Part shown: piece after piece, positions 6,332 to 36,016 of the stretch
How positions within the stretch are numbered: position 1 is the first letter of the stretch
How the letters are laid out: each line of letters opens with the position of its first letter
DNA from: a virus
Length of the DNA stretch: 64,000 nucleotides
Virus record (IMG/VR): IMGVR_UViG_3300042566_002057
Span: 1-64,000 of that record
Direction: 5' to 3' (one strand)
Notes under the pieces: model-generated
Database searches by the model: none
What the model saw: the letters and a program-made list of their open reading frames with translations, nothing else
Told to the model about the DNA's origin: nothing
Made by a program: the position numbers and the translations under genes

Positions 6332-6384
6332 TAAATTTGGTAGAATTAAAACTTTTATCTAATTTTGTATAAAATAATGACAAA
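6332..6384 (+). promoter_or_regulatory. Bacteroidota-type promoter; 53-nt block repeated identically at 19826-19878
   Basis: TTTG 6336-6339, 20-nt spacer, TAATTTTG 6360-6367; AATATATA follows at 6401. Confidence 0.8.
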
Positions 6385-6415
6385 GGAAGAATAACTTTTT
6401 AATATATAAGAAATA

Positions 6416-6517
6416 ATGACAACAAATCGCACACATAAACATTTTAGTAAATCGAGCAAGTGGTTTAGCACCCAGTTCGGTACTGAAAAAGTATTGCGTG
6501 ATTTGACTACACTATAA
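6416..6517 (+). CDS. attenuator leader peptide 1, MTTNRTHKHFSKSSKWFSTQFGTEKVLRDLTTL (Phe/His/Trp, also Lys/Ser)
   Basis: 33-codon ORF before a terminator and the Phe/His/Phe/Trp tRNAs; AGTTCGG 6474-6480 is complementary to the terminator 5' arm. Confidence 0.85.
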   Translation: MTTNRTHKHFSKSSKWFSTQFGTEKVLRDLTTL

Positions 6518-6542
6518 GTAGTAAAATTAAATACAATATTTA

Positions 6543-6578
6543 AGGTCCGAACTCAAAAAGTTCGGACTTTTTTGTTTT
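6543..6578 (+). terminator. attenuator terminator 1
   Basis: AGGTCCGAACT-CAAAA-AGTTCGGACTT plus T-tract, directly upstream of tRNA-Phe. Confidence 0.9.
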
Positions 6579-6588
6579 ATAATAAATT

Positions 6589-6661
6589 GGAACGGTGGCA
6601 GATCAGGTGATTGCGCTGGACTGAAAATCCAGAGGAATGGGTTCGATACCCATCCGTTCCA
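6589..6661 (+). tRNA. tRNA-Phe(GAA)
   Basis: GGAACGG/CCGTTCC acceptor; CTGGA-CTGAAAA-TCCAG anticodon arm; TTCGA T-loop. Confidence 0.9.
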
Positions 6662-6738
6662 CGGAGTCCTGAAATAACAGGAAACCCCCACTCCCATATG
6701 GCAGCCAGTCCATTAACCTGGTGAAGTGGGGTTTATAT

Positions 6739-6812
6739 GGTGAATGTAGCTCAATCGGTAGAGCACTGGTTTGTGAAGCCAGAGGTAGCGGGATCGTAAC
6801 CCGTCGTTCACC
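6739..6812 (+). tRNA. tRNA-His(GTG)
   Basis: G-1 and C73; CTGGT-TTGTGAA-GCCAG; atypical T-loop ATCGTAA. Confidence 0.9.
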
Positions 6813-6817
6813 CAAAA

Positions 6818-6889
6818 GGAGACTTAGCTAAGTAGGTTTAGCGTCCGGTTGAAGCCCGGAAGAGGTCGGTTCGATTCCGTCAGTCTCCA
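6818..6889 (+). tRNA. tRNA-Phe(GAA)
   Basis: TCCGG-TTGAAGC-CCGGA; GGAGACT/AGTCTCC acceptor. Confidence 0.85.
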
Positions 6890-6896
6890 CTAAAAA

Positions 6897-6969
6897 GCGT
6901 CATTTGTGTAATGGCTTAGCATCTTCGGTTCCAACCCGAAGGGTCAGGGTTCGAGTCCTTGGTGACGCG
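6897..6969 (+). tRNA. tRNA-Trp(CCA)
   Basis: TTCGG-TTCCAAC-CCGAA; G73. Confidence 0.9.
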
Positions 6970-7063
6970 CAATTACAAGTATGTAATCCAATTTAACTCC
7001 GAATGAGTTAATTGAATGATGTAAGAAGATTTTAGAGTTTAATAATTATAAAATAGAAAAAAA

Positions 7064-7099
7064 ATGAAAAAGAAAATGGAAACTAAACGAAAACGTTAA
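7064..7099 (+). CDS. putative Lys leader peptide MKKKMETKRKR
   Basis: 11 codons with 5 Lys, followed directly by a hairpin (7100-7129) and three Lys tRNAs. Confidence 0.65.
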   Translation: MKKKMETKRKR

Positions 7100-7143
7100 G
7101 TGATGGCTTACTAAGTTATAAGTCATCACATCGGAAAAATTAT

Positions 7144-7216
7144 GACTTCGTAGCTTAGTAGGTAGAGCACCTGGCTTTTAACCAGGGGGTCGCGAGTTCG
7201 ATTCTCGCCGGGGTCA
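7144..7216 (+). tRNA. tRNA-Lys(TTT)
   Basis: CCTGG-CTTTTAA-CCAGG. Confidence 0.92.
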
Positions 7217-7227
7217 CAAGGTAATAA

Positions 7228-7315
7228 GCACCTATGGCTCAATTGGTAGAGCATCGCACTTTTAATGCGAGGGGTAGACGTAAGTCCGTTGAAGGTTCGA
7301 GTCCTTCTGGGTGCA
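7228..7315 (+). tRNA. tRNA-Lys(TTT) with long variable arm
   Basis: TCGCA-CTTTTAA-TGCGA; extended variable region containing GAC-GTAA-GTC. Confidence 0.85.
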
Positions 7316-7321
7316 CTAAAT

Positions 7322-7396
7322 GACTTCGTATCCGTAATTGGTTTCCGGACCTGACTCTTAATCAGGGATATGTGGGTTCGAGTCCCACCGGAGTCA
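7322..7396 (+). tRNA. tRNA-Lys(CTT)
   Basis: CCTGA-CTCTTAA-TCAGG. Confidence 0.88.
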
Positions 7397-7407
7397 CAAA
7401 TATAAAT

Positions 7408-7534
7408 GGGGATGTAGCTCAGTGGTAGAGAAAACTATCTCTTTTGAAATTTTACCTCGTGAGAGTGTTGATTGAAAGAGTTACTTCGTATATTTGAAAT
7501 TATAAGGTCGTGGGTTCGAATCCCACCATCCCCA
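7408..7534 (+). tRNA. tRNA of uncertain identity with a ~56-nt structured insertion after the D-arm
   Basis: Canonical GGGGATG/CATCCCC acceptor, D-arm and T-arm; insertion at about 7431-7487; irregular anticodon arm around TTGAAA. Confidence 0.65.
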
Positions 7535-7575
7535 CAAAAAGAAAAAGAAAAAATTAATATATAAAAAATAAGATT

Positions 7576-7650
7576 ATGAAAACTATTATGTCAACATCGA
7601 AAAGTTCTAGTCGCTCGTCAAAGATGAGGGAGGTTCGATCGTATTCATAA
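7576..7650 (+). CDS. attenuator leader peptide 3, MKTIMSTSKSSSRSSKMREVRSYS (Ser/Arg)
   Basis: 9 Ser and 3 Arg in 24 codons; GAGGGAGGTTCGA 7626-7638 pairs with the terminator 5' arm. Confidence 0.88.
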   Translation: MKTIMSTSKSSSRSSKMREVRSYS

Positions 7651-7673
7651 TAGTCATAATAAGATATTGTGTT

Positions 7674-7709
7674 AACCCTCGAACCTAAAGTTTGAGGGTT
7701 TTTTGTTTT
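7674..7709 (+). terminator. attenuator terminator 3
   Basis: AACCCTCGAAC-CTAAA-GTTTGAGGGTT plus T-tract. Confidence 0.9.
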
Positions 7710-7713
7710 ATAT

Positions 7714-7787
7714 AGTTCCATAGTTTAATTGGATAAAACACCGGATTACGGCTCCGGAGATTGAGGGTTCGAGTCCTTCTGGAACTA
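7714..7787 (+). tRNA. tRNA-Arg(ACG)
   Basis: CCGGA-TTACGGC-TCCGG. Confidence 0.9.
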
Positions 7788-7793
7788 CAAATT

Positions 7794-7880
7794 GGAAAAG
7801 TAAGAGCAGTTGGTCTAAGCTCGGCGGTCTTGAAAACCGTAGGCCCTAGTGGTGTGTGAGTTCGAGTCTCACCTTTTCCG
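7794..7880 (+). tRNA. tRNA-Ser(TGA)
   Basis: GCGGT-CTTGAAA-ACCGT; long variable arm; G73. Confidence 0.88.
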
Positions 7881-7885
7881 CAAAA

Positions 7886-7969
7886 GGAGAATAAACTAAT
7901 CTGGTGATTAGGACCGCCTGCTAAGCGAGTCGTACTTTATAGTATGGGGTTCAATTCCTCTGTTCTCCG
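7886..7969 (+). tRNA. tRNA-Ser(GCT)
   Basis: CTGCTAA loop; long variable arm; G73. Confidence 0.82.
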
Positions 7970-7975
7970 CTATTT

Positions 7976-8061
7976 GGAGAGTAAACTGATGAGGTCATCA
8001 GCCACGCCTGGAAAGCGTTGGGTGCGTTCAATCGTATGGGTTTCGAGTATTCTGCTCTCCG
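7976..8061 (+). tRNA. tRNA-Ser(GGA)
   Basis: CACGC-CTGGAAA-GCGTT; long variable arm; weak T-stem. Confidence 0.78.
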
Positions 8062-8070
8062 CAAAAATGA

Positions 8071-11000
8071 TTACACAACACCAGTTATTATACCACCAGT
8101 AACAGTAACTATTTGACCATCTGCACTAAATGTTCCTGTCCATCCACTTGATACCGCTGAATCGACATAACCTTTAGTAACAAGTGAGTAAGTAGAAAAA
8201 TTAGCGGTATAATCATCTGTATATACCAGTCCCTTTTGATTAGCATCTGTGACTAATAATCTATTGTCTGAACTTCCATCATTTATATTCTGATCGATAT
8301 TTGTAATTAATATACCAGTAGATAATGATCCATCAAATGCAAAAATTGATGTACTTTGGTTATCTACAAAGACCCTCGAATATGTAGATGAGTCATATGT
8401 TACCTTTAAGTCTATAGCTGTGCCAAAGTTGTATATTCTTGACTCATTCAAGTTATTGTAGACTTTGTTATCAATAAATACAGAAGCTGTCACTGAAAAT
8501 CTTCCTAAGTTATTGATATAAAAGTTCTTTAGATCTCCTTCAATAAAAACTTGTGATGTAAGTGTTCCACCTAATTCAATATTTCCCGAAATACTTTGTG
8601 TTAGACCATTTTCACCCTGAACTTTTTGTGAATCAACATATCCTTTAGTTACAAGTGAATAAGTTGTGAAGTTTCCTACATAATTACCATCATAAACAAT
8701 ACCTTTATTATTGATATTATCAACAACTATTAAAGTGTTATTTATCGAACCATCTGAAATTGCTTGAGATCCAGCATAAGTACTAATAATGCTACTATAT
8801 GTACCAACTCTTGATTCTATTTTAATAGTGTCCATCTCACCTACTAAACCGGATCCCGTTACACCAGGAGCTCCATATATGAGCAAACCACCTGAAATGT
8901 CATGTGCTAAAAATCTAAGTGTGTTAGGACCATGTATCAAAAGTGTTGAACTATTTAAAAATTGTGATCTTGATGAGAAATAAACACTCGAAGTTAATGA
9001 AATTCTAGATGCGCCTAAAAAATGCAAATTTTTGTTGTCTACTTGAACAGTTGTATCTTGAGAAAGTGTTCCACCTAGTCCAATCACTCCTGATGATACA
9101 TAACTTAGACCATTTCCTGGTGTAGTAGATGAAATTGAATCAACATACCCTTTAGTTACAAGTGAATAAGTAGTGAAATTTGCAGTATAATCAGATCTAT
9201 ATACTATACCCTTCTGACTAATATCATCAGCTACTATAATTCTATTATTTGTTGATCCATCGCTTAATGGTTGGTCTTGTGAGTGAAAATTTATTCCAGA
9301 GTATCCAACACCATCAAAATTATATATATTTAATACTCCTGGTGTAATATCTACAATTGAGTAAGTTCCACTAGGATCATCAACTCTAGTATAGTAATTA
9401 TCACCATCATTCCACTGTGCACTAGTATTTGTGGATGGAGAAAAAACTGTATTAACTATAAAAGCTGAAGCTGTGACTGAAAATCTACTAAAATCGTTAA
9501 AATATACATTATTATCATAACCGTCAATAATCACTGGTCCACTTAGAGTTCCTCCTAAACCAATGTATCCTGAACTAAAAGTAAGACCATTATTTACATA
9601 TTGTTGTTTTTCATCAACATATCCTTTAGTAACTAATGAGTAAGTAGTAAAGTTTGGAGAATAATCTCCAACATATACTATTCCTTTATTTGATACATCT
9701 GTGACTAATATATTATTATCCGATGAGCCATCACCAATTGGTTGTGTTTCGTTATGAACTGTAATAGACGATACTCCGTTATTACCCACACTTTCAATAT
9801 TTATTGTACCAATATTTATTCTTGTTCTAGAATAAGTTGCATTATCAATTGTTGCTACTATGTTTTGGTAATCAGCTTGTTGTAAATAAACTTGACTATA
9901 ATAATCAGATGATATAACTCTATTATCTATGTTGTTAGATGCGGTCATTGTAATTCTGTATGCATCTGATATCTCTAAATCATATCCCTGTCCATAGATA
10001 ATTGTATTTAGTGAAAGCACACCACCTAATCCAATTTTATTATCAGTCTGTGACAGACCATTCATCGCATCACTAACAATAGTTTGTTCAGAACCAGAAA
10101 GTCCTGCATTCCAGTATTGAGATGAAGAACTCCAGAATATTTTAGAATAAGTTCCATCTCCTAAATTAACTTCAATTCCAGCATCAATTGCTGGTCCGCT
10201 ATATGTTCCATTAAGAGTTATAAAATTATCCTCGACAACAAGATTTTCTGTATAAATTGTTGATGTAGTTCCTAAAATAGCTAAGTCACCTAAGATAGTA
10301 ACAGAGTCATTAAACTGTCTATTACCATCAATTATGGATTTAAGTGAAACTTGATTACTTCCATTTAATTCAATTGACGTATTATCTACTTGTGATAAGA
10401 AATTACTATCTACATAATTCTTATCTATTAATGAATAAGTAACAAAAGTAGCTGAGTAATCAAATGCGTATCTTAGTCCTTCTAAGTTTCCGGATATAAC
10501 TGTTGAGTTACCGAAATTCAAATTAAATACACTTGGTGAGTAAATAATCAAATCACTTGTATTCATATCAATATATGTCTCTGAAATAGAACCATTATTT
10601 GTTGATATTACGACATTACCACTTGTAAATCCTTCATCTAAGTATATTCTACCACCACCATTACCACTAACTAAAGATGTACCAGTACCCATTACTATAT
10701 TTTGACCCAACGAATCATTGCCCTGAGTTAGTACTTGTTCCAATGTTGGTGTTGTAGAGGCTGGGGCCGTTCCCCAGTAAGCTTGACCAGCACCATCTGT
10801 TAACAATACTTCTGATAATGAACCATCAACATTTGGTAGTTTATAAGCATTATTTATATTAACACTGTTACCTAAATAAACTGTATTTGATTCAGTAGCT
10901 GATAAATTCACACCTCCAATAATAACACTATTATAGATTCCTGATTCAATGAATGCTGACTCAGATGAAATTGATGTTATCGGTGACTGAACAGCTGGTG

Positions 11001-11895
11001 TAGTTGAATAAGTAGTAGTATCTCTTACTAAAATACCATTTTTCCCAGTTAGGTGAGTAGATGAACTAGTTGATGAAAATATACCAATAATTGAGTTTGA
11101 TAAAAATGGTTTGTCTGTTGCTAAAATAACATCATTTGCACTATTAAACTCTAATAAGCCATATCCAGCACCTGATTTAATTCTATCACCATCTTTAATA
11201 ACTAACTGAGGAACATAAACTGTATTATTCTCATCTGCTATCATATCACTTCCTCCAATAATAACTGAGTTTGCTATTCCACCATATGTTGTTGAATTAT
11301 AGCTATTTAAATGTAAACTTGATTTATTAAGAGAACCAATGTCATATGTTGATTCTGATTTTATTATATCAATTTGACCAGAAAGTAAAGATGTATCATT
11401 TAGTGTCACATAATATGAATTCGGTGTGATATTTTGTACACTATAAATGGTTAAGTCTCCTACTCGATTGTTAATACTAATTGAATTTAAGTCAATAGTT
11501 GAAGCAGTATTACTTGTTAAATCAGTCATACTTATTGAAATTTCACCAAGACTTTGCTTGATACTATTTAAACCAAAGTAAGTACCATCATTAGTACTTA
11601 TCTCTAAGGCAGATGTTCCAAAATTAATTTGATTATTGCTTCCAGATGTAATAAGTGAGGTATTAGAACCCATCTCAATAGAGTAGGTTCCAGTGGATGA
11701 ACCCACTTTAAGAACATCTAAAAGTGATGGAGTCGCTGAGATTCCTGCAGTTCCACCAACACCGATTTGTATTATTGTACCGGAAGTATCTTTTTGTTTA
11801 AGAAAGCCATCTAAATCATAACCTATTATCCAACCCTGTGAAGGAGTTGCTGCGGTTGTCATCGAAACGGTAGATCCAAAATTTATAGTGCTCAT
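8071..11895 (-). CDS. long repetitive tail-fibre-like structural protein
   Basis: 1274 aa, Ser/Thr/Gly/Asn rich; five YxxNFTTYSLVTKGYVD-type repeats alternating with NGL...IGLGGTL; upstream AATATATA. Confidence 0.7.
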   Translation of the reverse strand: MSTINFGSTVSMTTAATPSQGWIIGYDLDGFLKQKDTSGTIIQIGVGGTAGISATPSLLDVLKVGSSTGTYSIEMGSNTSLITSGSNNQINFGTSALEISTNDGTYFGLNSIKQSLGEISISMTDLTSNTASTIDLNSISINNRVGDLTIYSVQNITPNSYYVTLNDTSLLSGQIDIIKSESTYDIGSLNKSSLHLNSYNSTTYGGIANSVIIGGSDMIADENNTVYVPQLVIKDGDRIKSGAGYGLLEFNSANDVILATDKPFLSNSIIGIFSSTSSSTHLTGKNGILVRDTTTYSTTPAVQSPITSISSESAFIESGIYNSVIIGGVNLSATESNTVYLGNSVNINNAYKLPNVDGSLSEVLLTDGAGQAYWGTAPASTTPTLEQVLTQGNDSLGQNIVMGTGTSLVSGNGGGRIYLDEGFTSGNVVISTNNGSISETYIDMNTSDLIIYSPSVFNLNFGNSTVISGNLEGLRYAFDYSATFVTYSLIDKNYVDSNFLSQVDNTSIELNGSNQVSLKSIIDGNRQFNDSVTILGDLAILGTTSTIYTENLVVEDNFITLNGTYSGPAIDAGIEVNLGDGTYSKIFWSSSSQYWNAGLSGSEQTIVSDAMNGLSQTDNKIGLGGVLSLNTIIYGQGYDLEISDAYRITMTASNNIDNRVISSDYYSQVYLQQADYQNIVATIDNATYSRTRINIGTINIESVGNNGVSSITVHNETQPIGDGSSDNNILVTDVSNKGIVYVGDYSPNFTTYSLVTKGYVDEKQQYVNNGLTFSSGYIGLGGTLSGPVIIDGYDNNVYFNDFSRFSVTASAFIVNTVFSPSTNTSAQWNDGDNYYTRVDDPSGTYSIVDITPGVLNIYNFDGVGYSGINFHSQDQPLSDGSTNNRIIVADDISQKGIVYRSDYTANFTTYSLVTKGYVDSISSTTPGNGLSYVSSGVIGLGGTLSQDTTVQVDNKNLHFLGASRISLTSSVYFSSRSQFLNSSTLLIHGPNTLRFLAHDISGGLLIYGAPGVTGSGLVGEMDTIKIESRVGTYSSIISTYAGSQAISDGSINNTLIVVDNINNKGIVYDGNYVGNFTTYSLVTKGYVDSQKVQGENGLTQSISGNIELGGTLTSQVFIEGDLKNFYINNLGRFSVTASVFIDNKVYNNLNESRIYNFGTAIDLKVTYDSSTYSRVFVDNQSTSIFAFDGSLSTGILITNIDQNINDGSSDNRLLVTDANQKGLVYTDDYTANFSTYSLVTKGYVDSAVSSGWTGTFSADGQIVTVTGGIITGVV

Positions 11896-11997
11896 CTATC
11901 TGAAATTATTGTTAGAGTATATATTATTTTACAAAGTGTCTTTTATTTTTAACTTTGCAAAAATTTGAGATATAATTTAAAAACACTCACTTAAATT

Positions 11998-12375
11998 ATG
12001 AAATTAGCCTTAATCGCACACGATGGTAAAAAAGCAGATATGGTTGCCTTTGTTATGAAAAGATTAGAATTCTTCAATCATAAAGAGGTAGAGATTGTAG
12101 CGACTGGAACAACCGGTGGTATGATTCAACGAGCCGGAGTGGATAAAGTTAAAACCGTACTTTCAGGACCACTTGGTGGTGACGCTGAAATAGGTTCGAT
12201 GGTTGCTAATGGAGAACTAGATGCTGTTATTTTCTTTAGAGATCCTTTAGACAAACACCCACATGATGTTGATATATCTATGTTAATGAGACTTTGTGAT
12301 GTTCATAATGTTCCATTAGCAACTAATTATAGGAGTGGTGATATTATGGTGAAATATTTTAGAAAAAAGATATGA
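11998..12375 (+). CDS. mgsA: methylglyoxal synthase
   Basis: ALIAHDGKK, ATGTTG, SGPLGGD, FFRDPL, PHDVD and LATN motifs. Confidence 0.97.
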   Translation: MKLALIAHDGKKADMVAFVMKRLEFFNHKEVEIVATGTTGGMIQRAGVDKVKTVLSGPLGGDAEIGSMVANGELDAVIFFRDPLDKHPHDVDISMLMRLCDVHNVPLATNYRSGDIMVKYFRKKI

Positions 12376-12623
12376 CTTGTGGTCAGACAATAGAATTTCT
12401 GACTAGGATATTACAGACTTCTATTGAAAAAAATTTATACGAGTTATCAAATACAATTATCACGATTCAACAACGACTTCTTGAAAAGTATAAATTAGAA
12501 GATATAGTTGAGTTATCTTACTTCACTGAAGTTTTACAGAAATCAATCGGAGGTTTATCTCATGAGGGTAAAGAAATACTATTACCAATTTTAAGAGAAC
12601 TGAAATTAAATACAATTCTTTAA
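12372..12623 (+). CDS. hypothetical protein (C-terminal LRELKLNTIL motif)
   Basis: ORF overlaps the mgsA stop codon. Confidence 0.65.
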   Translation: MTCGQTIEFLTRILQTSIEKNLYELSNTIITIQQRLLEKYKLEDIVELSYFTEVLQKSIGGLSHEGKEILLPILRELKLNTIL

Positions 12624-12991
12624 TACTTAGGTAATTTCATATCAGTTGTGATTTCAATTCTAAAGTTAAATCCAGTATCTTCATCACTTCCATATTTTAC
12701 TTCAGCGTCATAACCCATCTCACCACCAAATGTTGTTGGTTTTGGACCATTCTGAAGTTGTCTACGTCTTTCTTCTTCTCTTCTTCTTTTTTCTTCTTCC
12801 TGAGCAACCATTTGCTCAAATGTTAAGTTATTTTGAGGATTCTGATTATGTTGTATTTCTTCTTGTCTAGTGGAAAATTGAGTAGCATCATATCCATATT
12901 TTCTTAACAGTTCTTCAGCTTCCCAACCGGTAACTTCTCTTTCTGATTCAATGTGTTGTTGATCAACTATTCTTGCTTGTGGTCTTTCCAT
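12620..12991 (-). CDS. hypothetical protein
   Basis: 123 aa ORF. Confidence 0.7.
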   Translation of the reverse strand: MERPQARIVDQQHIESEREVTGWEAEELLRKYGYDATQFSTRQEEIQHNQNPQNNLTFEQMVAQEEEKRRREEERRRQLQNGPKPTTFGGEMGYDAEVKYGSDEDTGFNFRIEITTDMKLPKY

Positions 12992-13008
12992 GATTACATA
13001 TTATTTTT

Positions 13009-13476: not shown

Positions 13477-13560
13477 AAATCTATATATTAAATTAAAAAA
13501 AAGTATTAAAATCCAAAAACAGAGAAAACTTTTTGTTATATATACATATAATTAGAACAT

Positions 13561-13633
13561 CGCGGGGTGGAGCAGTCGGTAGCTCGCTAGGCTCATAACC
13601 TAGAGGTCACACGTTCGAGTCGTGTCCCCGCTA
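13561..13633 (+). tRNA. tRNA-fMet(CAT)
   Basis: CGCGGGGTGGAGCAG start; C1 mismatch; CTCATAA loop. Confidence 0.92.
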
Positions 13634-13700
13634 CTAAAAAAATAAAAATAAATTTGGTAGATTAAAAAAGTCTACTTATATTTGTAAAACAATTAAAGAA

Positions 13701-13778
13701 ATGATGACAACAGTTGCAACATATTATTATGAGGTCGAGAGCAAAAGCTCCGTCAGACGAGTATTAGTTATGTCGTAA
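13701..13778 (+). CDS. attenuator leader peptide 4, MMTTVATYYYEVESKSSVRRVLVMS (Tyr/Glu)
   Basis: TAT TAT TAT GAG GTC GAG; GTCAGAC 13752-13758 pairs with GTCTGAC of the terminator; promoter TTTG 13653 / TATATTTG 13677. Confidence 0.88.
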   Translation: MMTTVATYYYEVESKSSVRRVLVMS

Positions 13779-13800
13779 TTGAAAAATATTATATAACTTA

Positions 13801-13836
13801 AACCCAGTCTGACTTCAGATTGGGTTTTTTGTTTTT
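13801..13836 (+). terminator. attenuator terminator 4
   Basis: AACCCAGTCTGA-CT-TCAGATTGGGTT plus T-tract. Confidence 0.9.
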
Positions 13837-13846
13837 AAATTAATTT

Positions 13847-13914
13847 GGGATGGGTTATGGTGACGGCCGGATCTGTAAAATCCTAGCAGGTGAGTTCGAG
13901 TCTCACGCATCCCA
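13847..13914 (+). tRNA. tRNA-Tyr(GTA)-like, reduced D-arm and short variable region
   Basis: GGAT-CTGTAAA-ATCC; GTGAG-TTCGAGT-CTCAC T-arm; only about 68 nt. Confidence 0.6.
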
Positions 13915-13919
13915 CAAAT

Positions 13920-13953
13920 GGTCCTGTCGACTAATGGTTAGGTCAACACCCTT
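13920..13953 (+). pseudogene. 5' half of a tRNA-Glu-like gene ending in the anticodon loop
   Basis: GGTCCTGTCGACTAATGGTTAGGTCAACACCCTT followed by an A-rich promoter region. Confidence 0.7.
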
Positions 13954-14019
13954 AAAAAATAAAAACAAAAAAGATATTGTGGATTAAAAAAGTTTAATTA
14001 TCTTTGTAAAACAAAAGAC

Positions 14020-14091
14020 GGTCCCATCGTCTAACGGTTAGGACATTAGGTTTTCATCCTAAAAATCGGAGTTCGATTCTCCGTGGGACTA
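14020..14091 (+). tRNA. tRNA-Glu(TTC)
   Basis: TTAGG-TTTTCAT-CCTAA. Confidence 0.92.
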
Positions 14092-14186
14092 CAAATGTCG
14101 GAGTAATTAACCGATACTAACAAGAAGATGTATCATATATCGCAGTGAGATTTGGTACCAGTAATTTCTGATATGTCTACTTGAAT

Positions 14187-14265
14187 AACTGCTTATGGTG
14201 TAAATTGGTTTGCACGTCGGTCACTAAGGCCGAAGGGTTATAGGTTCGAGTCCTATGGGTAGTTC
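14187..14265 (+). tRNA. atypical tRNA with CTA anticodon (amber suppressor candidate)
   Basis: TCGGT-CACTAAG-GCCGA; 7-bp D-stem GTGTAAA/TTTGCAC; canonical T-arm. Confidence 0.6.
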
Positions 14266-14270
14266 AACAT

Positions 14271-14353
14271 TGGAAGGTGGCAGAGTGGTTAAATGCGGCG
14301 GACTGTAAATCCGCTCTCTTACGAGTACGGGGGTTCGAATCCCTCTCTTCCAA
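14271..14353 (+). tRNA. tRNA-Tyr(GTA)
   Basis: GCGGA-CTGTAAA-TCCGC; long variable arm. Confidence 0.93.
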
Positions 14354-14448
14354 CAAATAATATAATACTGTATCATGATGTTCCATGATTGAAAGTTTAT
14401 AATAGGGAAAAGAAAACTTTTTATATATACAATAATATAAATAATACA

Positions 14449-14526
14449 ATGAAGAATTTACTTAACATATCAGCATTTATAGCGAACGGCGCGGGGAGTG
14501 ACCGTAGTTGGCTGGTTGTTATGTAA
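14449..14526 (+). CDS. attenuator leader peptide 5, MKNLLNISAFIANGAGSDRSWLVVM (Ile-ATA/Ala/Gly)
   Basis: ATA TCA GCA TTT ATA GCG AAC GGC GCG GGG; TGGCTGG 14509-14515 pairs with CCAGTCA of the terminator. Confidence 0.85.
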   Translation: MKNLLNISAFIANGAGSDRSWLVVM

Positions 14527-14553
14527 ATTTCAGATATTGAAACTAACATACTT

Positions 14554-14582
14554 AACCCAGTCAGAAATGATTGGGTTTTTTT
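14554..14582 (+). terminator. attenuator terminator 5
   Basis: AACCCAGTCA-GAAA-TGATTGGGTT plus T-tract. Confidence 0.9.
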
Positions 14583-14586
14583 ATTT

Positions 14587-14667
14587 CGGCAAGTACCGTT
14601 GGAATCTTATACATTCTATACACGTAGCGGGAAGTTGAAAACGTGGGTTCGAATCCCACCTTGCCGA
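14587..14667 (+). tRNA. non-canonical tRNA-Ile(TAT)-like RNA lacking a normal D-arm
   Basis: CGGCAAG/CTTGCCG acceptor; TGGAAT-CTTATAC-ATTCTA arm; canonical T-arm. Confidence 0.6.
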
Positions 14668-14679
14668 CAAATGATACAA

Positions 14680-14753
14680 GCGGGTATCGTATAATGGTTT
14701 AATTACACCGGCCTTCCAAGTCGGTGATGTCGGTTCGATTCCGGTTACCCGCA
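14680..14753 (+). tRNA. tRNA-Gly(TCC)
   Basis: CCGGC-CTTCCAA-GTCGG. Confidence 0.9.
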
Positions 14754-14758
14754 CAAAT

Positions 14759-14834
14759 GGGCTAGCATGTTCCAAGGCTTCGGCGACTTACCCTTGCAAG
14801 GTAGGTGTGGTGGGTTCGATTCCCATCTGGTCCA
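14759..14834 (+). tRNA. tRNA-Ala(TGC)
   Basis: TTACC-CTTGCAA-GGTAG; G3-U70; irregular D-arm. Confidence 0.8.
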
Positions 14835-14855
14835 CAAAAAAAATAAATATGAGGA

Positions 14856-14981
14856 ATGAAAGTAGTAATTAAAGGCGAATTTAAATCAAGTAAAGTAAAT
14901 CTAAGAAATTCAGAAGAAATTAAATTAGATGTTTATTTAGAAAGACTAATTAAAAAGATTAAAAAGAGAATTAAAAAATAA
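14856..14981 (+). CDS. small basic hypothetical protein (41 aa) inside the tRNA cluster
   Basis: MKVVIKGEFKSSKVNLRNSEEIKLDVYLERLIKKIKKRIKK fills the tRNA spacer. Confidence 0.4.
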   Translation: MKVVIKGEFKSSKVNLRNSEEIKLDVYLERLIKKIKKRIKK

Positions 14982-14986
14982 AATAA

Positions 14987-15062
<76 letters not shown>

Positions 15063-15104
15063 AAATGCCGGGTGATCCACCGTTGAATCACGGTGCCGGC
15101 TCCA

Positions 15105-15178
15105 GGGGGATTAGCTCATTTGGCTAGAGCGCTTGTCTGGCAGACAAGAGGTGACGAGTTCAATCCTCGTATCCTCCA
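15105..15178 (+). tRNA. tRNA-Ala(GGC)
   Basis: CTTGT-CTGGCAG-ACAAG; G3-U70. Confidence 0.92.
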
Positions 15179-15180
15179 CA

Positions 15181-15215
15181 AAAAAGTCTAGTTATTTATT
15201 TAACTAGACTTTTTT
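15181..15215 (+). terminator. intrinsic terminator after the Gly/Ala cluster
   Basis: AAAAAGTCTAGTTA...TAACTAGACTTTTTT. Confidence 0.75.
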
Positions 15216-15228
15216 AATATATAACATT

Positions 15229-19805: not shown

Positions 19806-19918
19806 AAAATTAAAAATATTTTAATTAAATTTGGTAGAATTAAAACTTTTATCTAATTTTGTATAAAATAATGACAAAAACCTCGAAAGAGAGTAATAAC
19901 TTTTAATATATAACAACA

Positions 19919-20032
19919 ATGAGAACAAATAATACAAATATGATGAACCTGACACTCAATGTGGTGAATATTACGTTATGTAATATTAGACCGTCTGAGG
20001 GTTCCTTCCTATTTAGAAAATTTGTCTCGTAA
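19919..20032 (+). CDS. attenuator leader peptide 6, MRTNNTNMMNLTLNVVNITLCNIRPSEGSFLFRKFVS
   Basis: Codons 1-24 use only M,R,T,N,L,V,I,C, the amino acids of the 14 downstream tRNAs; TCTGAGGGTTC 19994-20004 pairs with the terminator 5' arm. Confidence 0.92.
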   Translation: MRTNNTNMMNLTLNVVNITLCNIRPSEGSFLFRKFVS

Positions 20033-20063: not shown

Positions 20064-20095
20064 GAACCCTCAGATAAAAATCTGAGGGTTTTTTT
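20064..20095 (+). terminator. attenuator terminator 6
   Basis: GAACCCTCAGAT-AAAA-ATCTGAGGGTTT plus T-tract. Confidence 0.92.
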
Positions 20096-20110: not shown

Positions 20111-20195
20111 CGGTAGGTACCCGAGCGGTCTTCAGGGACCAGTCTGATACACTGGGTGAGAAATCACAACGTGGGTTCAAATCCCACCCTACCGA
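20111..20195 (+). tRNA. tRNA-Ile(GAT) with long variable arm
   Basis: CCAGT-CTGATAC-ACTGG; variable hairpin GTGA-GAAA-TCAC. Confidence 0.82.
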
Positions 20196-20203
20196 CAAAA
20201 TAT

Positions 20204-20275
20204 GGCTCCTTCGTCCAATGGATAGGACGTCGCTCTTCTAAAGCGAAGATACTGGTTCGAATCCAGTAGGGGCTA
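20204..20275 (+). tRNA. tRNA-Arg(TCT)
   Basis: TCGCT-CTTCTAA-AGCGA. Confidence 0.9.
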
Positions 20276-20285
20276 CAAATAAAAT

Positions 20286-20367
20286 GCCGAGGTGGTGGAA
20301 TGGTAGACACACCAGTTTAAGAAGCTGGTATCCTCAGGGTGTGAGAGTTCGAGTCTCTCCCTCGGTA
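20286..20367 (+). tRNA. tRNA-Leu(AAG)
   Basis: CCAGT-TTAAGAA-GCTGG; Leu-type body with long variable arm. Confidence 0.85.
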
Positions 20368-20373
20368 CAAAAT

Positions 20374-20462
20374 GGGCTTGTAGCTGATTTGGTTTTAGCT
20401 GGTGACTGTTAATCACTGTATGAAAAATTGAAATAAAGTAGGTTCGAATCCTACCTGGCCCG
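20374..20462 (+). tRNA. tRNA-Asn(GTT) with long variable region
   Basis: GGTGA-CTGTTAA-TCACT; G73. Confidence 0.78.
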
Positions 20463-20468
20463 CAAATC

Positions 20469-20539
20469 GCCCCGATGGCGTAAAGGTAGCGTATCTCTTT
20501 TACATGGAGAAGGCAGTGGTTCGATACCACTTCGGGGTA
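20469..20539 (+). tRNA. tRNA-Val(TAC)
   Basis: TCTCT-TTTACAT-GGAGA. Confidence 0.85.
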
Positions 20540-20546
20540 CTAAAAT

Positions 20547-20619
20547 TGTCAGTTAGCTCATTTGGTAGAGCACTTGTCTGATACACAAGAGGTGGTGGGA
20601 TCGTAACCCGCACTGACAA
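20547..20619 (+). tRNA. tRNA-Ile(GAT)
   Basis: CTTGT-CTGATAC-ACAAG; ATCGTAA T-loop. Confidence 0.87.
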
Positions 20620-20625
20620 CAACAA

Positions 20626-20708
20626 GCACCTGTGGTCGAGTGGTGTCGTAAGACGAGAGGCACTGGATTGCAAACCCAGTCACGGGGGTTCGAATCCCTC
20701 CAGGTGCT
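20626..20708 (+). tRNA. tRNA-Cys(GCA) with extra hairpin in the D-loop
   Basis: TTGCAAA loop; U73; GTC-GTAA-GAC insert. Confidence 0.82.
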
Positions 20709-20716
20709 CAAAATAT

Positions 20717-20788
20717 GCTGATGTCGTATAATGGTTATTACATTGCCTTTGTAACGCAAATATGTGGGTTCGACTCCCTCCATCAGCT
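20717..20788 (+). tRNA. tRNA-Thr(TGT)
   Basis: GCTGATG/CATCAGC acceptor; TTTGTAA loop. Confidence 0.82.
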
Positions 20789-20794
20789 CTAAAA

Positions 20795-20866
20795 TGTCTC
20801 GTAGTTTAATGGGAAAACGTTACCTTGACATGGTAAAGAGAGTGGGATCGTTACCCACCGAGACAA
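20795..20866 (+). tRNA. tRNA-Val(GAC)
   Basis: TTACC-TTGACAT-GGTAA. Confidence 0.85.
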
Positions 20867-20871
20867 CAAAA

Positions 20872-20990
20872 AATAATGGATGGTGATTGCAAGGGTTACT
20901 TCGTTTAATGACTAAACAATTGACTTTTAATCAATCTACACTGGTTCGATCCCAGTAGTATATCACTCTTCAAGGCTTTCCTCCGTTATT
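20872..20990 (+). ncRNA. tRNA-Lys(TTT)-like core embedded in a structured element, no normal acceptor end
   Basis: D-like arm, ATTGA-CTTTTAA-TCAAT and ACTGG-TTCGATC-CCAGT, flanked by TGATTGCAAGGGTTACTTCG and ACTCTTCAAGGCTTTCCTCC. Confidence 0.6.
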
Positions 20991-20996
20991 TTATTT

Positions 20997-21069
20997 GCCT
21001 CTATGACGTAATTGGCAGTCGTATGCGCCTTAGAAGCGTAGTGTCCGAGTTCGAATCTCGGTAGAGGTA
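20997..21069 (+). tRNA. tRNA-Leu(TAG), short variable loop
   Basis: TGCGC-CTTAGAA-GCGTA. Confidence 0.85.
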
Positions 21070-21083
21070 CAAACAAAACGAAT

Positions 21084-21156
21084 GCCCCGGTGACGTAATT
21101 GGCAGTCGTATCCGGCTTAAAATCGGAGTGTGCGGGTTCGAATCCCGTCTGGGGTA
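21084..21156 (+). tRNA. tRNA-Leu(TAA), short variable loop
   Basis: TCCGG-CTTAAAA-TCGGA. Confidence 0.85.
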
Positions 21157-21164
21157 CAAAATAA

Positions 21165-21237
21165 GCAGTTATCGTATAATCGGTGATTACACGTCCTTGG
21201 TAAGGATGAGACCCCAGTTCGATCCTGGGTATCTGCT
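21165..21237 (+). tRNA. tRNA-Thr(GGT)
   Basis: CGTCC-TTGGTAA-GGATG. Confidence 0.87.
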
Positions 21238-21243
21238 CTAAAT

Positions 21244-21313
21244 GCCGCGGCTTAGTGGAAAAGGACATTGGCTCATATCCGATGTTAAGTGAGTTCGAAC
21301 CTCATACGCGGTA
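21244..21313 (+). tRNA. tRNA-Met(CAT) (elongator Met or Ile2)
   Basis: ATTGG-CTCATAT-CCGAT; reduced D-arm. Confidence 0.7.
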
Positions 21314-21323
21314 CTAATAAAAA

Positions 21324-21396
21324 GCCTCTATGACGTAATTGGTAGTCGTATTTGTCTCAAAAGCAAAGTGTCCGGATTCGAATTCCGGTAGAGGTA
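21324..21396 (+). tRNA. tRNA-Leu(CAA), short variable loop
   Basis: TTTGT-CTCAAAA-GCAAA; paralog of 20997..21069. Confidence 0.85.
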
Positions 21397-22092
21397 CTAA
21401 GAAAGTATATAACTTTCAAGTTTATCAAAGTACTCTAAATCTACAAGATAGTATTCGTCACATATAAAAGTAATCTCTTGTAAATTGACTTTATTTATAT
21501 TACCCTCTTGATATCCATTGACTATGTAGTTTACATCACTTAGAACTTCATCAGTAATTTCTATATTATTGTATTCTTTATACCAATCAAAATTATCTCT
21601 TAATTCGGTAAAAAGATCATCTATATTTGGATTCCAAAAATATCTAAATCCATTTTTAGGAAAAAACATATATGTGTTTTTTAGTCTGTCTGGTCCAGCA
21701 TAATCAGATGCAATAGAAAGATTTTTAGTAGCAAACACACCACGACTTCTAAGTGGTATTCCAAATTTTCTTTCTAGACCTTTATTTATCAGTTCATTTA
21801 TTTCCCAATTTGTGTCTTTTGCTTTTCTTTTTTCGATTGGTTCTATCTTCCAAACTCCATCCAATATATTTGTTTGATTAACAGGTTCTTTATAATCCAT
21901 TTTATTTCTAAACATTTCCGCCTCCCATGCTGTGTCAGGACTAGTTAAAAATCCTCTATATAAAGAACTTATTCTATTAGTTTTTAGAAGATTTAAAAAT
22001 TCACCACATTCAGATTCTAAGATATCTACCATCTTCTCAAATGTATTATCATTATTTTCTGTAAAAATTCTAAATTCTTTGAGGTATTTCAT
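21397..22092 (-). CDS. hypothetical protein (MKYLKEFRIFTE motif)
   Basis: 231 aa; LYRG and FAT motifs loosely resemble ADP-ribosyltransferase folds; upstream AATATATA. Confidence 0.7.
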   Translation of the reverse strand: MKYLKEFRIFTENNDNTFEKMVDILESECGEFLNLLKTNRISSLYRGFLTSPDTAWEAEMFRNKMDYKEPVNQTNILDGVWKIEPIEKRKAKDTNWEINELINKGLERKFGIPLRSRGVFATKNLSIASDYAGPDRLKNTYMFFPKNGFRYFWNPNIDDLFTELRDNFDWYKEYNNIEITDEVLSDVNYIVNGYQEGNINKVNLQEITFICDEYYLVDLEYFDKLESYILS

Positions 22093-33801: not shown

Positions 33802-33835
33802 ATATTCTCATCTTAAAACTATAATATATAGTATT

Positions 33836-35218
33836 ATGAGATATCTTAAGACTTTTGAGGGTATTGTACCGGTAAGACCTGGTACTAACAAAGAATATAG
33901 AATTCAGAATCTACCACATAAGGGAGAACCTATTGAGGATGATAATAATATCTCTATAATGCAACAAGATTGGTTTGAAAAATTACTACCAGATACTCTT
34001 TATATTGTATCTGATCCAAAATTGAGTAAATTAAACTTCGACCAATCATTAACTCCAGTTCCAAAAGGAGAATATGCCTTCGATAAAAATGATTGTACCA
34101 TAGATAATGGATTAGTTCAATTTAATTATTGGTATGATCCAAGATTACATCCAGGTACTGAGTTAGAAGATGGTGAACCATCTTGTATTGAATTTGATAT
34201 TCATTTCTCAAAAAATGATAGTGGATTTAAATTAATTGTTGATATAACTTATGGTGATCATAAAGCAACTGAATTTACAATTGAAGCTCCAAATAAGATT
34301 AATGTTGTTCACTATACTGGTGTTGATTCTAAATACGATGACTCTACACACTGGGGATTCAAAGATGAATCTATAAAAGATTTAGTGAAATTCTTTAATG
34401 CTTTTAATCATGGTATACAAATACAACCTGAAGATTTATCATTTATTGATGAGCATTTTGATAGTTATAAACACGATATACATAATCAAGATCATCTTTA
34501 TACAGATGAATCTGATTTAATTGAGTTTGGTAATTCAGTGAAAGAATCAAATGATTCTGATATATTTTTGATTATTAATAATGCTAAACCACCTCAGTAT
34601 AAATATTATCCAAAAGTAGTTAAGTATTTAACTATTAAAAATTTACCATTTAGAGTGGCTACTACACCTGAAGAAGTAGAAAAATATAATTCAGAATATA
34701 ATATTATAGGTGCTTTTTCAACCGGTTCTGATTTTAGTATGACTAATCCAGATTCAACTTCTGAATATTCAACAAATGAAAAAGCGTTAGAAATATTAAG
34801 TTGTCCTATAATTTCTATGTGTTATGGTTTCCAATCAATGGCTAAGTTTTATGGTCAAGAAATAACAGGTGGAGACTTAAACTGTAATCAATTCTTACTA
34901 ACTGATTATGATGATTCACACTTCTTGTTTAGTGGAATTGATCTATCAACTCAGAAATTAAGTTTTTGTTTTCATGATTATCCAGTTAATGTACCTTCTG
35001 GTTTTAGAAATATTGCAATGTTAGGTGATGTTATTTCTGGAATATCAAACACATCAACCGAAAGATATGGTATACTTTTTCATCCTGAAGAATTAGAACA
35101 AACTTATATTATCTTAGATAATTTTGTAAATCATTGTTATTCTAAGGTAAGTTTTAATAAAGAAAGTGAGTTTATTCTACAAACTTATGAATCTTTTATT
35201 AATAAAATCAAAAAATAA
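33836..35218 (+). CDS. phage domain fused to a class I glutamine amidotransferase-like domain
   Basis: SMCYGFQ nucleophile elbow and FHPE; N-terminal MRYLKTFE motif. Confidence 0.75.
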   Translation: MRYLKTFEGIVPVRPGTNKEYRIQNLPHKGEPIEDDNNISIMQQDWFEKLLPDTLYIVSDPKLSKLNFDQSLTPVPKGEYAFDKNDCTIDNGLVQFNYWYDPRLHPGTELEDGEPSCIEFDIHFSKNDSGFKLIVDITYGDHKATEFTIEAPNKINVVHYTGVDSKYDDSTHWGFKDESIKDLVKFFNAFNHGIQIQPEDLSFIDEHFDSYKHDIHNQDHLYTDESDLIEFGNSVKESNDSDIFLIINNAKPPQYKYYPKVVKYLTIKNLPFRVATTPEEVEKYNSEYNIIGAFSTGSDFSMTNPDSTSEYSTNEKALEILSCPIISMCYGFQSMAKFYGQEITGGDLNCNQFLLTDYDDSHFLFSGIDLSTQKLSFCFHDYPVNVPSGFRNIAMLGDVISGISNTSTERYGILFHPEELEQTYIILDNFVNHCYSKVSFNKESEFILQTYESFINKIKK

Positions 35219-35309
35219 TTTGGTCAGATTGAAACTTATCTATATCTTTGTAGTATAAATCTGACAAATAATTAAAAAGAGAGTAATAATATTTAATATA
35301 TAAGAAATA

Positions 35310-35405
35310 ATGACAACAATTAACGTAAATATCGCACAAGTTAACCCGCAACCTCAGGATCAGGATCGTGAGAGAGTGGCTAACTATGTCTTTACAATAA
35401 GTTAA
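35310..35405 (+). CDS. attenuator leader peptide 7, MTTINVNIAQVNPQPQDQDRERVANYVFTIS (Gln/Pro/Asp)
   Basis: CCG CAA CCT CAG GAT CAG GAT; GTGGCTAACT 35376-35385 pairs with GGTTAGTCAC 35435-35444; promoter TTTG 35219 / TATCTTTG 35243. Confidence 0.9.
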   Translation: MTTINVNIAQVNPQPQDQDRERVANYVFTIS

Positions 35406-35427
35406 TGTTTAAGTTAAATAAATTTGT

Positions 35428-35463
35428 AAAACCCGGTTAGTCACAAACTAATCGGGTTTTTTT
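35428..35463 (+). terminator. attenuator terminator 7
   Basis: AAAACCCGGTTAGT-CACAA-ACTAATCGGGTTTT plus T-tract. Confidence 0.92.
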
Positions 35464-35465
35464 AT

Positions 35466-35538
35466 TGTCCTATGGTGTAATTGGCAACACGTCTGGTTTT
35501 GATCCAGAAGAGTTGAGGTTCGAGCCCTTGTGGGACAG
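35466..35538 (+). tRNA. tRNA-Gln(TTG)
   Basis: TCTGG-TTTTGAT-CCAGA; T1-A72. Confidence 0.9.
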
Positions 35539-35543
35539 CAAAA

Positions 35544-35617
35544 CGAGAAGTGACTAAGGTTTTAAGCACGGGCGGTCTGGAGCCGTCAGTTAGTGGGTTC
35601 GATTCCCACCTTCTCGA
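35544..35617 (+). tRNA. tRNA-Pro(TGG)
   Basis: GGCGG-TCTGGAG-CCGTC; C1-G72; A73. Confidence 0.75.
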
Positions 35618-35622
35618 CAAAT

Positions 35623-35695
35623 GGTCTATTGGTGAAATGGCTTATCATCCCATCCTGTCACGATGGAGTAGACGGATCGTAACCGTCATAGACCG
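35623..35695 (+). tRNA. tRNA-Asp(GTC)
   Basis: CCATC-CTGTCAC-GATGG; G73. Confidence 0.88.
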
Positions 35696-35759
35696 CACAA
35701 AGTAACTGTTTGGCGGTGAAAGTACTCTTTAGAGAATAGAGTAAAATAATTCTCAATAT

Positions 35760-35842
35760 TGTGGAGTCGGCTAATTGGCAGGCCACCTGACTTTGAATCA
35801 GGGAGATAACACTCAGTGTAGGTTCGAGTCCTACCTCCACAA
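35760..35842 (+). tRNA. tRNA-Gln(TTG) with long variable arm
   Basis: CCTGA-CTTTGAA-TCAGG. Confidence 0.82.
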
Positions 35843-35849
35843 CAAAAAA

Positions 35850-35937
35850 CTAGGTGTGTAGGCAATTGGAAGCCGACCTGATTTGGGGTCAGGAATGAAC
35901 ATAAAGTTCTATGTGGGTTCGAGTCCCACCACTTAGA
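35850..35937 (+). tRNA. tRNA-Pro(TGG) with long variable arm
   Basis: CCTGA-TTTGGGG-TCAGG; GAAC-ATAAA-GTTC variable hairpin. Confidence 0.82.
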
Positions 35938-35943
35938 CAAATT

Positions 35944-36016
35944 GGTCTATTGGTGAAATGGCTTATCATTCCATCCTGTCACGATGGAGTAGACGGATCG
36001 TAACCGTCATAGACCG
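35944..36016 (+). tRNA. tRNA-Asp(GTC), near-identical duplicate of 35623..35695
   Basis: One substitution relative to the first copy. Confidence 0.88.

Follow-up and report, generated by a model that had tools for sequence, protein, structure and literature searches.

The window analysed here, the first 64 kb (64,000 nucleotides, nt) of a 152 kb contig from a huge Bacteroidota phage (IMG/VR record IMGVR_UViG_3300042566_002057), carries six elements in which a short open reading frame (ORF) is followed by an intrinsic terminator and, immediately thereafter, by an array of transfer RNA (tRNA) genes. Taken together, the features described below make it very probable that the phage tRNA genes are gated by these elements through ribosome-mediated (leader-peptide) transcription attenuation, a reading that rests throughout on computation (sequence, comparison and folding). 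Attenuation of this kind had been proposed in the original prediction, and the sequence-level expectations that were examined, namely codon matching, choice of isoacceptors, tracking of array content by leader composition, conservation, start context, covariation and the position of the cognate codons within the ORF, were all borne out. The elements are denoted A, C, D, E, F and G in order along the window, with B used for a Lys-specific element between A and C, and their coordinates are collected in Table 1.

The six leader ORFs of 24-37 codons that had been proposed are all present, including that of unit E, whose ATG at 14449 starts a 25-codon frame nested in a longer TTG-started frame. As was also proposed, a hairpin-plus-T-run terminator follows every leader ORF (predicted energies of -14 to -18 kcal/mol), and the first tRNA begins 2-15 nt past the T-run in all six arrays. 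The six leader stop codons lie 21-31 nt upstream of the terminator in the window, and 16-33 nt upstream of it across relatives. Under a strict definition, the 152 kb contig has about 10 distinct strong terminators, of which 5 are directly upstream of tRNA arrays, and the one remaining terminator of the six, that of unit E, falls slightly below the strict cut. For a terminator that stands 3' of a promoter and directly 5' of structural RNA genes, hardly any role other than that of a gate suggests itself. The units are furthermore serial within operons, with A leading to the Lys element and then to C, and D leading to E.

The leader codons match the tRNAs encoded downstream, in keeping with the original prediction. 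When whole ORFs are scored with plain wobble rules, and no sensor window is selected, 68 of 179 codons are cognate, compared with a permutation mean of 26.6, and the true assignment of leaders to arrays is the unique maximum of all 5040 permutations, or of 720 without the Lys mini-ORF. The true assignment is also the unique best one in all nine relatives with at least three leaders. In leader F, 22 of the 23 sensor codons are cognate to array F. The matching extends to synonymous codons, as Ile is written ATA in leader E, before Ile(TAT), and ATT in leader F, before Ile(GAT), and Arg is written CGC and CGA in leader C, before Arg(ACG), and AGA in leader F, before Arg(TCT). Over all relatives, the Ile codons are ATA in 28 of 39 cases in leaders upstream of Ile(TAT) and ATT or ATC in 13 of 15 upstream of Ile(GAT), and the Arg codons are likewise CGN in 20 of 26 cases upstream of Arg(ACG) and AGA in 14 of 15 upstream of Arg(TCT), these pooled counts not being independent over records, because homologous leaders are related by descent. 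Within the ORFs the cognate codons are concentrated towards the start, accounting for 45% of codons before the antiterminator segment (see below) and 20% from the segment onward (p = 2e-8).

The nearest named relatives of the window phage are two 'uncultured phage' genomes, LR745206.1 (634,780 bp) and LR756502.1 (642,428 bp). The comparison covers the tRNA regions of 15 related records, i.e., these two, eight IMG/VR contigs ranging from 105 to 476 kb, and five of smaller size. Of 117 loci that match a loose DNA pattern of the leader start, about 13, chosen by tRNA content, are relatives, and the matches are mostly chance occurrences in AT-rich phages. Leaders were called automatically where a terminator lies at most 60 nt from a tRNA and an ORF ends 10-45 nt upstream of that terminator. 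The expected homologous leaders in related huge phages are indeed found. After exclusions the set comprises 54 leaders in 16 records, every one of them with an ORF, and leader ORF A is kept in 11 records.

Where the arrays of these relatives have been split or fused, the composition of the leaders tracks the tRNA content. In LR745206, LR756502, G001 and G003, the Gln tRNAs form a separate block with a second leader of its own, and these Gln-block leaders, only 16-17 codons long, contain 4-7 consecutive Gln codons. G007, G008 and contig L096 have the Tyr/Glu block joined to the Ile/Gly/Ala block, and a single leader there carries Ile, Glu, Ala, Gly and Tyr. G007 and G008 also have the big array split in two; its first leader contains five Leu and Arg in front of Arg(TCT) and four Leu tRNAs, and the sensor part of the second leader contains only Thr, Asn, Val, Ile and Cys, with the same five tRNAs downstream. 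In G002 and G004, the Phe, His, Trp, Lys, Ser and Arg tRNAs stand in one block, and its leader has all six residues; that of G004 is the same as leader A over the first 27 residues. The presence of Lys, Ser and Arg codons in leader A of the window is accounted for by the Lys and Arg/Ser arrays that lie downstream in the same unit. A comparison of the window with LR745206 shows the loss of a His codon at position 9 and the gain of one at position 14, so that the number of His codons is kept and their position is not.

Several features of the leader ORFs have the character of coding sequence. All 54 leaders retain a frame of comparable length despite the frequent stop codons of AT-rich DNA, and in family F (the homologues of leader F) the gap runs are multiples of three in 27 of 27 cases inside the ORF and in 8 of 36 outside it. 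The start context of the leader ATG, moreover, is that of real long phage genes, which carry the TAATATATA motif. Frame conservation, frame-preserving insertions and deletions and the start context are indirect signs that the leaders may be translated.

The original prediction further held that each ORF contains, 3' of its sensor codons, a segment complementary to the 5' arm of its terminator. In the window this pairing is strong in F and good in A, C and E, but it is at chance level in D and G. The mean duplex between ORF and 5' arm has an energy of -10.5 kcal/mol, against -6.4 kcal/mol for shuffled ORFs (Wilcoxon p = 7e-10), and in accordance with the proposed antiterminator, the pairing covaries in four of the six leader families among the relatives. 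A leader pairs better with its own terminator arm than with the arms of its orthologues in families A (p = 0.006), C (p = 0.03), D/E (p = 0.009) and F (p = 0.001); for family A the energies of such swapped-arm duplexes are used instead of column counts, which were dropped because one divergent member has its antiterminator segment placed wrongly in the alignment.

The antiterminator helix of family F is 87.9% paired in a nine-member alignment and contains five compensatory pairs, a level reached by 0 of 500 shuffles; sliding the helix by 1-3 columns lowers the pairing to 19-58%. The terminator of the same family is 94.9% paired, and terminator stems covary in relatives. Each of the family F arms CCCTCAGA, CCCGAAC and CCCGAAA is paired by a matching ORF segment. 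In family A, the arm CCGAACT has become CCAAGTT in contig L096 and the ORF segment AGTTCGG has become AACTTGG, and leader C shows a compensatory change to GATTCGA/TCGAATC in LR745206 from GGTTCGA/TCGAACC. Folding of the nascent RNA at the stage where the 3' arm is still to emerge, with the sensor codons covered by a ribosome footprint, predicts pairing of the 5' arm with the ORF in all 54 leaders, which fits read-through upon stalling.

Two kinds of start signal are associated with the leaders. The Bacteroidota-type promoter motif (TTTG, 17-21 nt, TAnnTTTG) has 18 matches in the window against 3.75 expected. A promoter had been proposed before each leader, and this applies to A, D, F and G, which are preceded by an exact motif, but not to C and E, where the only signal is a phage motif of the TAATATATA type; these two lie inside arrays, lack a host-type promoter and are probably internal gates. 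The second signal, TAATATATA, is located 6-12 nt upstream of the ATG of leaders A, C, F and G, and many long phage genes, among them ORFs of 744 and 1274 codons, have it 4-7 nt (sometimes about 20 nt) upstream. We consider TAATATATA a candidate signal, specific to the phage, either for a promoter or for the start of translation. Each of the initiator-type Met tRNAs (13561 and 43732) is directly preceded by a promoter and lacks a leader, as expected for tRNAs that elongation cannot sense.

In the mechanism we propose, transcription would start at the host-type promoter and/or at the phage TAATATATA-type signal, and a ribosome would start on the short leader ORF, of which the first two-thirds would consist of sensor codons for the tRNAs encoded just downstream. 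When charged cognate tRNA is scarce, decoding would be slow and the ribosome would stall upstream of the antiterminator segment; the segment thus left free would capture the emerging terminator 5' arm by base pairing, the hairpin would not form, and RNA polymerase would enter the tRNA array. When decoding is fast, the ribosome would cover the segment and reach the stop codon, the terminator would form, and transcription would end. The outcome would be negative feedback on each tRNA set, down to the level of isoacceptors, in which slow reading leads to the tRNAs being made. Since the units are in series, a distal array would need read-through at every earlier gate. Translation and stalling, along with the sign and magnitude of the response and the natural trigger, are inferred; starvation or anticodon nucleases in the role of that trigger are speculation. 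Somewhat better than even, in our estimate, are the chances of the broader picture, in which tRNA supply is handled by modular, isoacceptor-specific closed-loop controllers that are serially nested and have been repeatedly rewritten with each splitting, fusion and shuffling of blocks in the huge-phage clade to which the 634-642 kb genomes belong.

A number of observations weigh against attenuation, in addition to the shared descent of the pooled codon counts. The duplexes of leaders D and G, at -6 to -7 kcal/mol, are no better than the shuffled mean of -6.4 kcal/mol in the window alone, and arm swapping gives no covariation signal in the Gln/Pro/Asp or poly-Gln families. Without translation, the fold of lowest energy for the nascent RNA is the antiterminator in 40 of 54 leaders, and with a ribosome placed at the stop codon it still is so in 35 of 54, so that constrained folding, which the original prediction had suggested as a check, fails to separate a ribosome at the stop codon from a stalled one. 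The ORFs extend 8-14 codons beyond the antiterminator segment, unlike those of trpL, hisL and pheL. A trp-like 1:2 (anti-antiterminator) helix, which would sequester the antiterminator segment after run-through, appears in the single-sequence minimum-energy folds of leaders A, C and E, and consensus folding recovers only the terminators and two short local hairpins, with no conserved 1:2 helix. Finally, the tRNA-Glu gene at 14020 has a promoter copy of its own, located 3' of a truncated tRNA fragment, and the Lys element is without a terminator. Since folding energies do not separate the states, the choice between run-through and stall would have to be kinetic; its determinants would be the position of the lead ribosome as the 3' arm emerges, refolding behind the ribosome, and the ribosomes that follow. 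As a conjecture, the spacing between stop codon and terminator, together with the ORF tail, may require the ribosome to traverse the segment and then to sit between the two pairing partners.

The folding results bear directly on one alternative, in which the switch is real and is set mainly by how often the leader is translated and not by tRNA supply, codon bias merely tuning what would be an early/late timer. A promoter about 45 nt upstream and a TAATATATA signal near the ATG would yield different 5' ends and different ribosome loading, and both signals are present at leaders A, F and G; as the untranslated RNA forms the antiterminator in most leaders, ribosome loading alone would alter the outcome. 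A timer, however, needs neither leaders whose composition follows array content through splits and fusions nor synonymous codons specific for isoacceptors, and we regard this explanation as improbable.

We give still less credence to the idea that the leaders are ordinary micro-protein genes with terminators of their own, the arrays being reached by leaky read-through or from unseen promoters and the codon resemblance being a by-product. The ORFs are conserved, have gene-like start contexts and, within families, partly conserved C-terminal tails, all of which a micro-protein would explain. It would offer no reason for peptide composition to mirror the anticodons in every genome, or to change alongside them, and the peptides are of low complexity, with sensor residues that drift in position while their counts are kept. 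The covarying complementarity between ORF and terminator arm would also be left unexplained, and the 2-15 nt between terminator and tRNA leave no room for a promoter motif. The least probable explanation, to which we attach hardly any weight, is direct sensing of the T-box kind, in which anticodons of uncharged tRNAs pair with the codon run and translation plays no part. Codon runs are complementary to anticodons by construction; but an untranslated RNA needs no start or stop codon, no frame-preserving indels and no gene-like start context, all of which are kept, and neither the T-box nor any other Rfam riboswitch gives a match at E <= 1 in 6200-21500. Up to eight specificities in a single 70-nt run have, in addition, no known T-box precedent.

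The Lys tRNAs of array B, between units A and C, were originally assigned a leader of the same kind, and that assignment holds only in part. A Lys-rich mini-ORF does lie upstream of them, but the hairpin that follows it lacks a U tract, which is why the mini-ORF was rejected as a seventh attenuator. Its counterpart in relatives is a conserved ORF of 9 codons in which every second residue is Lys; the stop codon is flush with a strong hairpin in every record, and the stem of that hairpin is wholly different in sequence between relatives, its structure being kept. The first Lys tRNA begins 14 nt after the hairpin. The Lys element is real and would act by some other mechanism.

Table 1. Positions of leader elements, start signals and tRNA genes in the window; energies are those of the predicted duplex with the terminator 5' arm.
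Feature	Coordinates	Strand	Remarks
Promoter, unit A	6336..6367	+	Bacteroidota-type; same 32-nt motif instance again at 19830-19861
TAATATATA motif, leader A	6400..6408	+	7 nt upstream of ATG
Leader ORF A	6416..6517	+	33 codons; codons 5-19 nearly all Arg, His, Lys, Phe, Ser or Trp
Antiterminator segment, leader A	6473..6485	+	-13.2 kcal/mol
Terminator A	6542..6573	+	12-bp stem, T-run; covariation in relatives
tRNA array A	6589..6970	+	Phe(GAA), His(GTG), Phe(GAA), Trp(CCA)
Lys-rich mini-ORF	7064..7099	+	11 codons, 5 Lys
Hairpin	7100..7129	+	Flush with mini-ORF stop codon, no U tract
tRNA array B	7144..7397	+	Lys(TTT), Lys(TTT), Lys(CTT)
TAATATATA motif, leader C	7555..7563	+	Host-type promoter motif absent here
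Leader ORF C	7576..7650	+	24 codons: 9 Ser, 3 Arg
Antiterminator segment, leader C	7625..7638	+	Within good range, -10 to -13 kcal/mol
Terminator C	7674..7704	+	Intrinsic
tRNA array C	7714..8063	+	Arg(ACG), Ser(TGA), Ser(GCT), Ser(GGA)
Promoter, unit D	13653..13684	+	Bacteroidota-type
Leader ORF D	13701..13778	+	25 codons; run YYYEVE
Antiterminator segment, leader D, weak	13750..13759	+	-6.2 kcal/mol; -10.9 in LR745206
Terminator D	13800..13830	+	Intrinsic
tRNA array D	13844..14354	+	Tyr-like(GTA), truncated tRNA fragment, promoter copy, Glu(TTC), structured stretch, Tyr(GTA)
Leader ORF E	14449..14526	+	25 codons; Ile = ATA x2, Ala = GCA/GCG, Gly = GGC/GGG
Antiterminator segment, leader E	14508..14516	+	-10.2 kcal/mol
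Terminator E	14554..14582	+	Intrinsic
tRNA array E	14587..15179	+	Ile(TAT), Gly(TCC), Ala(TGC), Gly(GCC), Ala(GGC)
Promoter, unit F	19830..19861	+	Bacteroidota-type
Leader ORF F	19919..20032	+	37 codons; codons 2-24 only Arg, Thr, Asn, Met, Leu, Val, Ile, Cys
Antiterminator segment, leader F	19993..20004	+	12 bp, -21 kcal/mol
Terminator F	20064..20095	+	Intrinsic
tRNA array F, 5' part	20111..21397 (whole array)	+	Ile, Arg(TCT), Leu, Asn, Val, Ile, Cys-like, Thr, Val
tRNA array F, 3' part	20111..21397 (whole array)	+	Lys-like pseudo-tRNA, Leu, Leu, Thr, CAT tRNA, Leu
Promoter, unit G	35219..35250	+	Bacteroidota-type
Leader ORF G	35310..35405	+	31 codons; run PQPQDQD
Antiterminator segment, leader G, weak	35378..35386	+	-7.2 kcal/mol; family without covariation signal
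Terminator G	35429..35463	+	Intrinsic
tRNA array G	35466..36017	+	Gln, Pro, Asp, Gln, Pro, Asp
TAATATATA at long genes, examples	15215, 18369, 33822, 42833	+	
TAATATATA at long genes, examples	30743, 22106, 13490, 11926	-	
Long second-copy tRNAs	7228-7316, 20111-20196, 20374-20463, 35760-35843, 35850-35938		

All tRNA genes of the contig are inside the window. ARAGORN in its default setting reports 36 and misses several; relaxed thresholds, Rfam and inspection by eye add a Tyr-like tRNA at 13844, Ile(TAT) at 14587, Ala(TGC) at 14759, Ser(GCT) at 7884, Ser(GGA) at about 7977, Cys(GCA) at 20626 and a CAT tRNA at 21241, the Ser(GGA) of array C being assigned by eye and by synteny with relatives. 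Once the tRNAs found in these ways are included, the window covers 20 of 20 amino acids, as originally claimed. The second copies of the Lys, Ile, Asn, Gln and Pro tRNAs measure 84-90 nt owing to extra arms, normally absent from these types, and relatives likewise have many tRNAs of 81-91 nt.

Some stretches in and between the arrays depart from ordinary tRNA genes. The tRNA-like gene at 7408-7535 is interrupted in its anticodon region by about 55 extra nt, which could be an intron or a mobile insert, and a short motif, GGTTACTTCG, recurs in or beside odd tRNA-like stretches both in the window (also at 20872-20966) and in LR745206 (L001, 3690-3760). Structured spacers separate tRNAs at 6663-6739 and 14093-14270, and ARAGORN at low threshold places a Val(CAC)-like gene at 14188-14265. 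In array D, region 13917-14019 holds a Glu-like tRNA reduced to its 5' half and then a degenerate promoter-block copy, after which comes the intact tRNA-Glu; the region looks like a recombination scar that gave Glu a leaderless promoter. Array E contains a 41-codon Lys-rich ORF (14856-14981) between Ala(TGC) and Gly(GCC), with no terminator after it.

Beyond the six units, the tRNA-like genes at 43456-43542, 44720-44794 and 44879-44993 have odd anticodon loops, for which ARAGORN gives two-base 'anticodons'; one of these candidates has a large insertion, and that at 43456-43542 has its own host-type promoter at 43380. A GOLLD RNA (Rfam RF02032, 298.9 bits) is located at 44297-44706, between a Met tRNA and more tRNA-like genes. 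The 490 nt 5' of this match (region 43806-44706) look equally structured, and may be the variable 5' half of the GOLLD RNA.

Arrays of tRNA genes are a hallmark of large phages. Huge-phage genomes with up to 67 tRNAs and predicted Bacteroidetes hosts have been described (Al-Shayeb et al. 2020, PMC7162821). The large-phage tRNA arrays of that study belong to the same clade as the window phage, the 634 and 642 kb genomes being its nearest named relatives, and neither 'attenuat' nor 'leader' occurs in its text, which does not address array regulation. In line with the original view that the arrangement is undescribed, literature searches, with older subscription papers outside their coverage, found such control described for amino-acid and synthetase genes only, and no leader-peptide control of tRNA genes. 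Attenuator-like leaders may once have been discussed for the E. coli tRNA-Phe genes. The novelty is the class of target, i.e., tRNA genes, and not the mechanism.

If true, the attenuation reading would give a textbook mechanism a new regulatory target, in the form of feedback from decoding speed on tRNA transcription, and would account for the grouping of the arrays by amino acid. The leaders would be compact orthogonal sensors for the charging or abundance of chosen tRNAs. In the broader picture of modular controllers, the phage could also counter host anticodon nucleases, or host tRNA decay, with exactly the tRNAs being lost. The correspondence between leader composition and array content is a signature for which any phage genome can be screened.

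Among known systems, the pheST attenuator, with its pheM leader, controls a synthetase on the bacterial chromosome in response to one amino acid. It shares with the mechanism proposed for the phage elements the leader-peptide attenuation of a component of the translation apparatus, responsive to charged tRNA, but the phage targets are tRNA genes, and several amino acids are involved. The ilvGMEDA leader senses Ile, Val and Leu, and the thr leader senses Thr and Ile. Like these, a single phage leader would sample several amino acids, although in the phage up to eight would be sampled in 23 consecutive codons (19922-19990), and the sampled set is the tRNA set of the array, not the end products of a pathway.

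The T-box riboswitch binds uncharged tRNA directly and does not require translation (PMC2879506). Here too, a terminator and an antiterminator would be controlled by the state of a specific tRNA, but the features of the phage ORFs argue for translation, and the T-box search of 6200-21500 noted above was negative at E <= 1. The closest likeness is to the leader-peptide attenuators trpL, hisL, pheL, leuL and thrL of amino-acid biosynthetic operons (PMC3082878, PMC1183508), which resemble the phage elements in the regulatory codons of a short ORF, in the intrinsic terminator with its predicted, mutually exclusive antiterminator and, in the mechanism proposed, in read-through upon stalling. The Rfam families of Trp, His, Leu, Thr and Phe leaders give no match, either at E <= 1 in 6200-21500 or at the gathering score over the whole window. 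The phage elements differ from this type in being phage-encoded and in having longer ORFs (24-37 codons), and they keep a stop-terminator spacing and an ORF tail past the antiterminator segment that the classic leaders do not have. Most of all, their regulated genes are tRNAs rather than genes of biosynthesis, transport or aminoacylation. In the phage elements the regulated product would be the sensed species itself, and the loop would therefore be direct, not passing through a metabolic pathway as it does in the trpL type.

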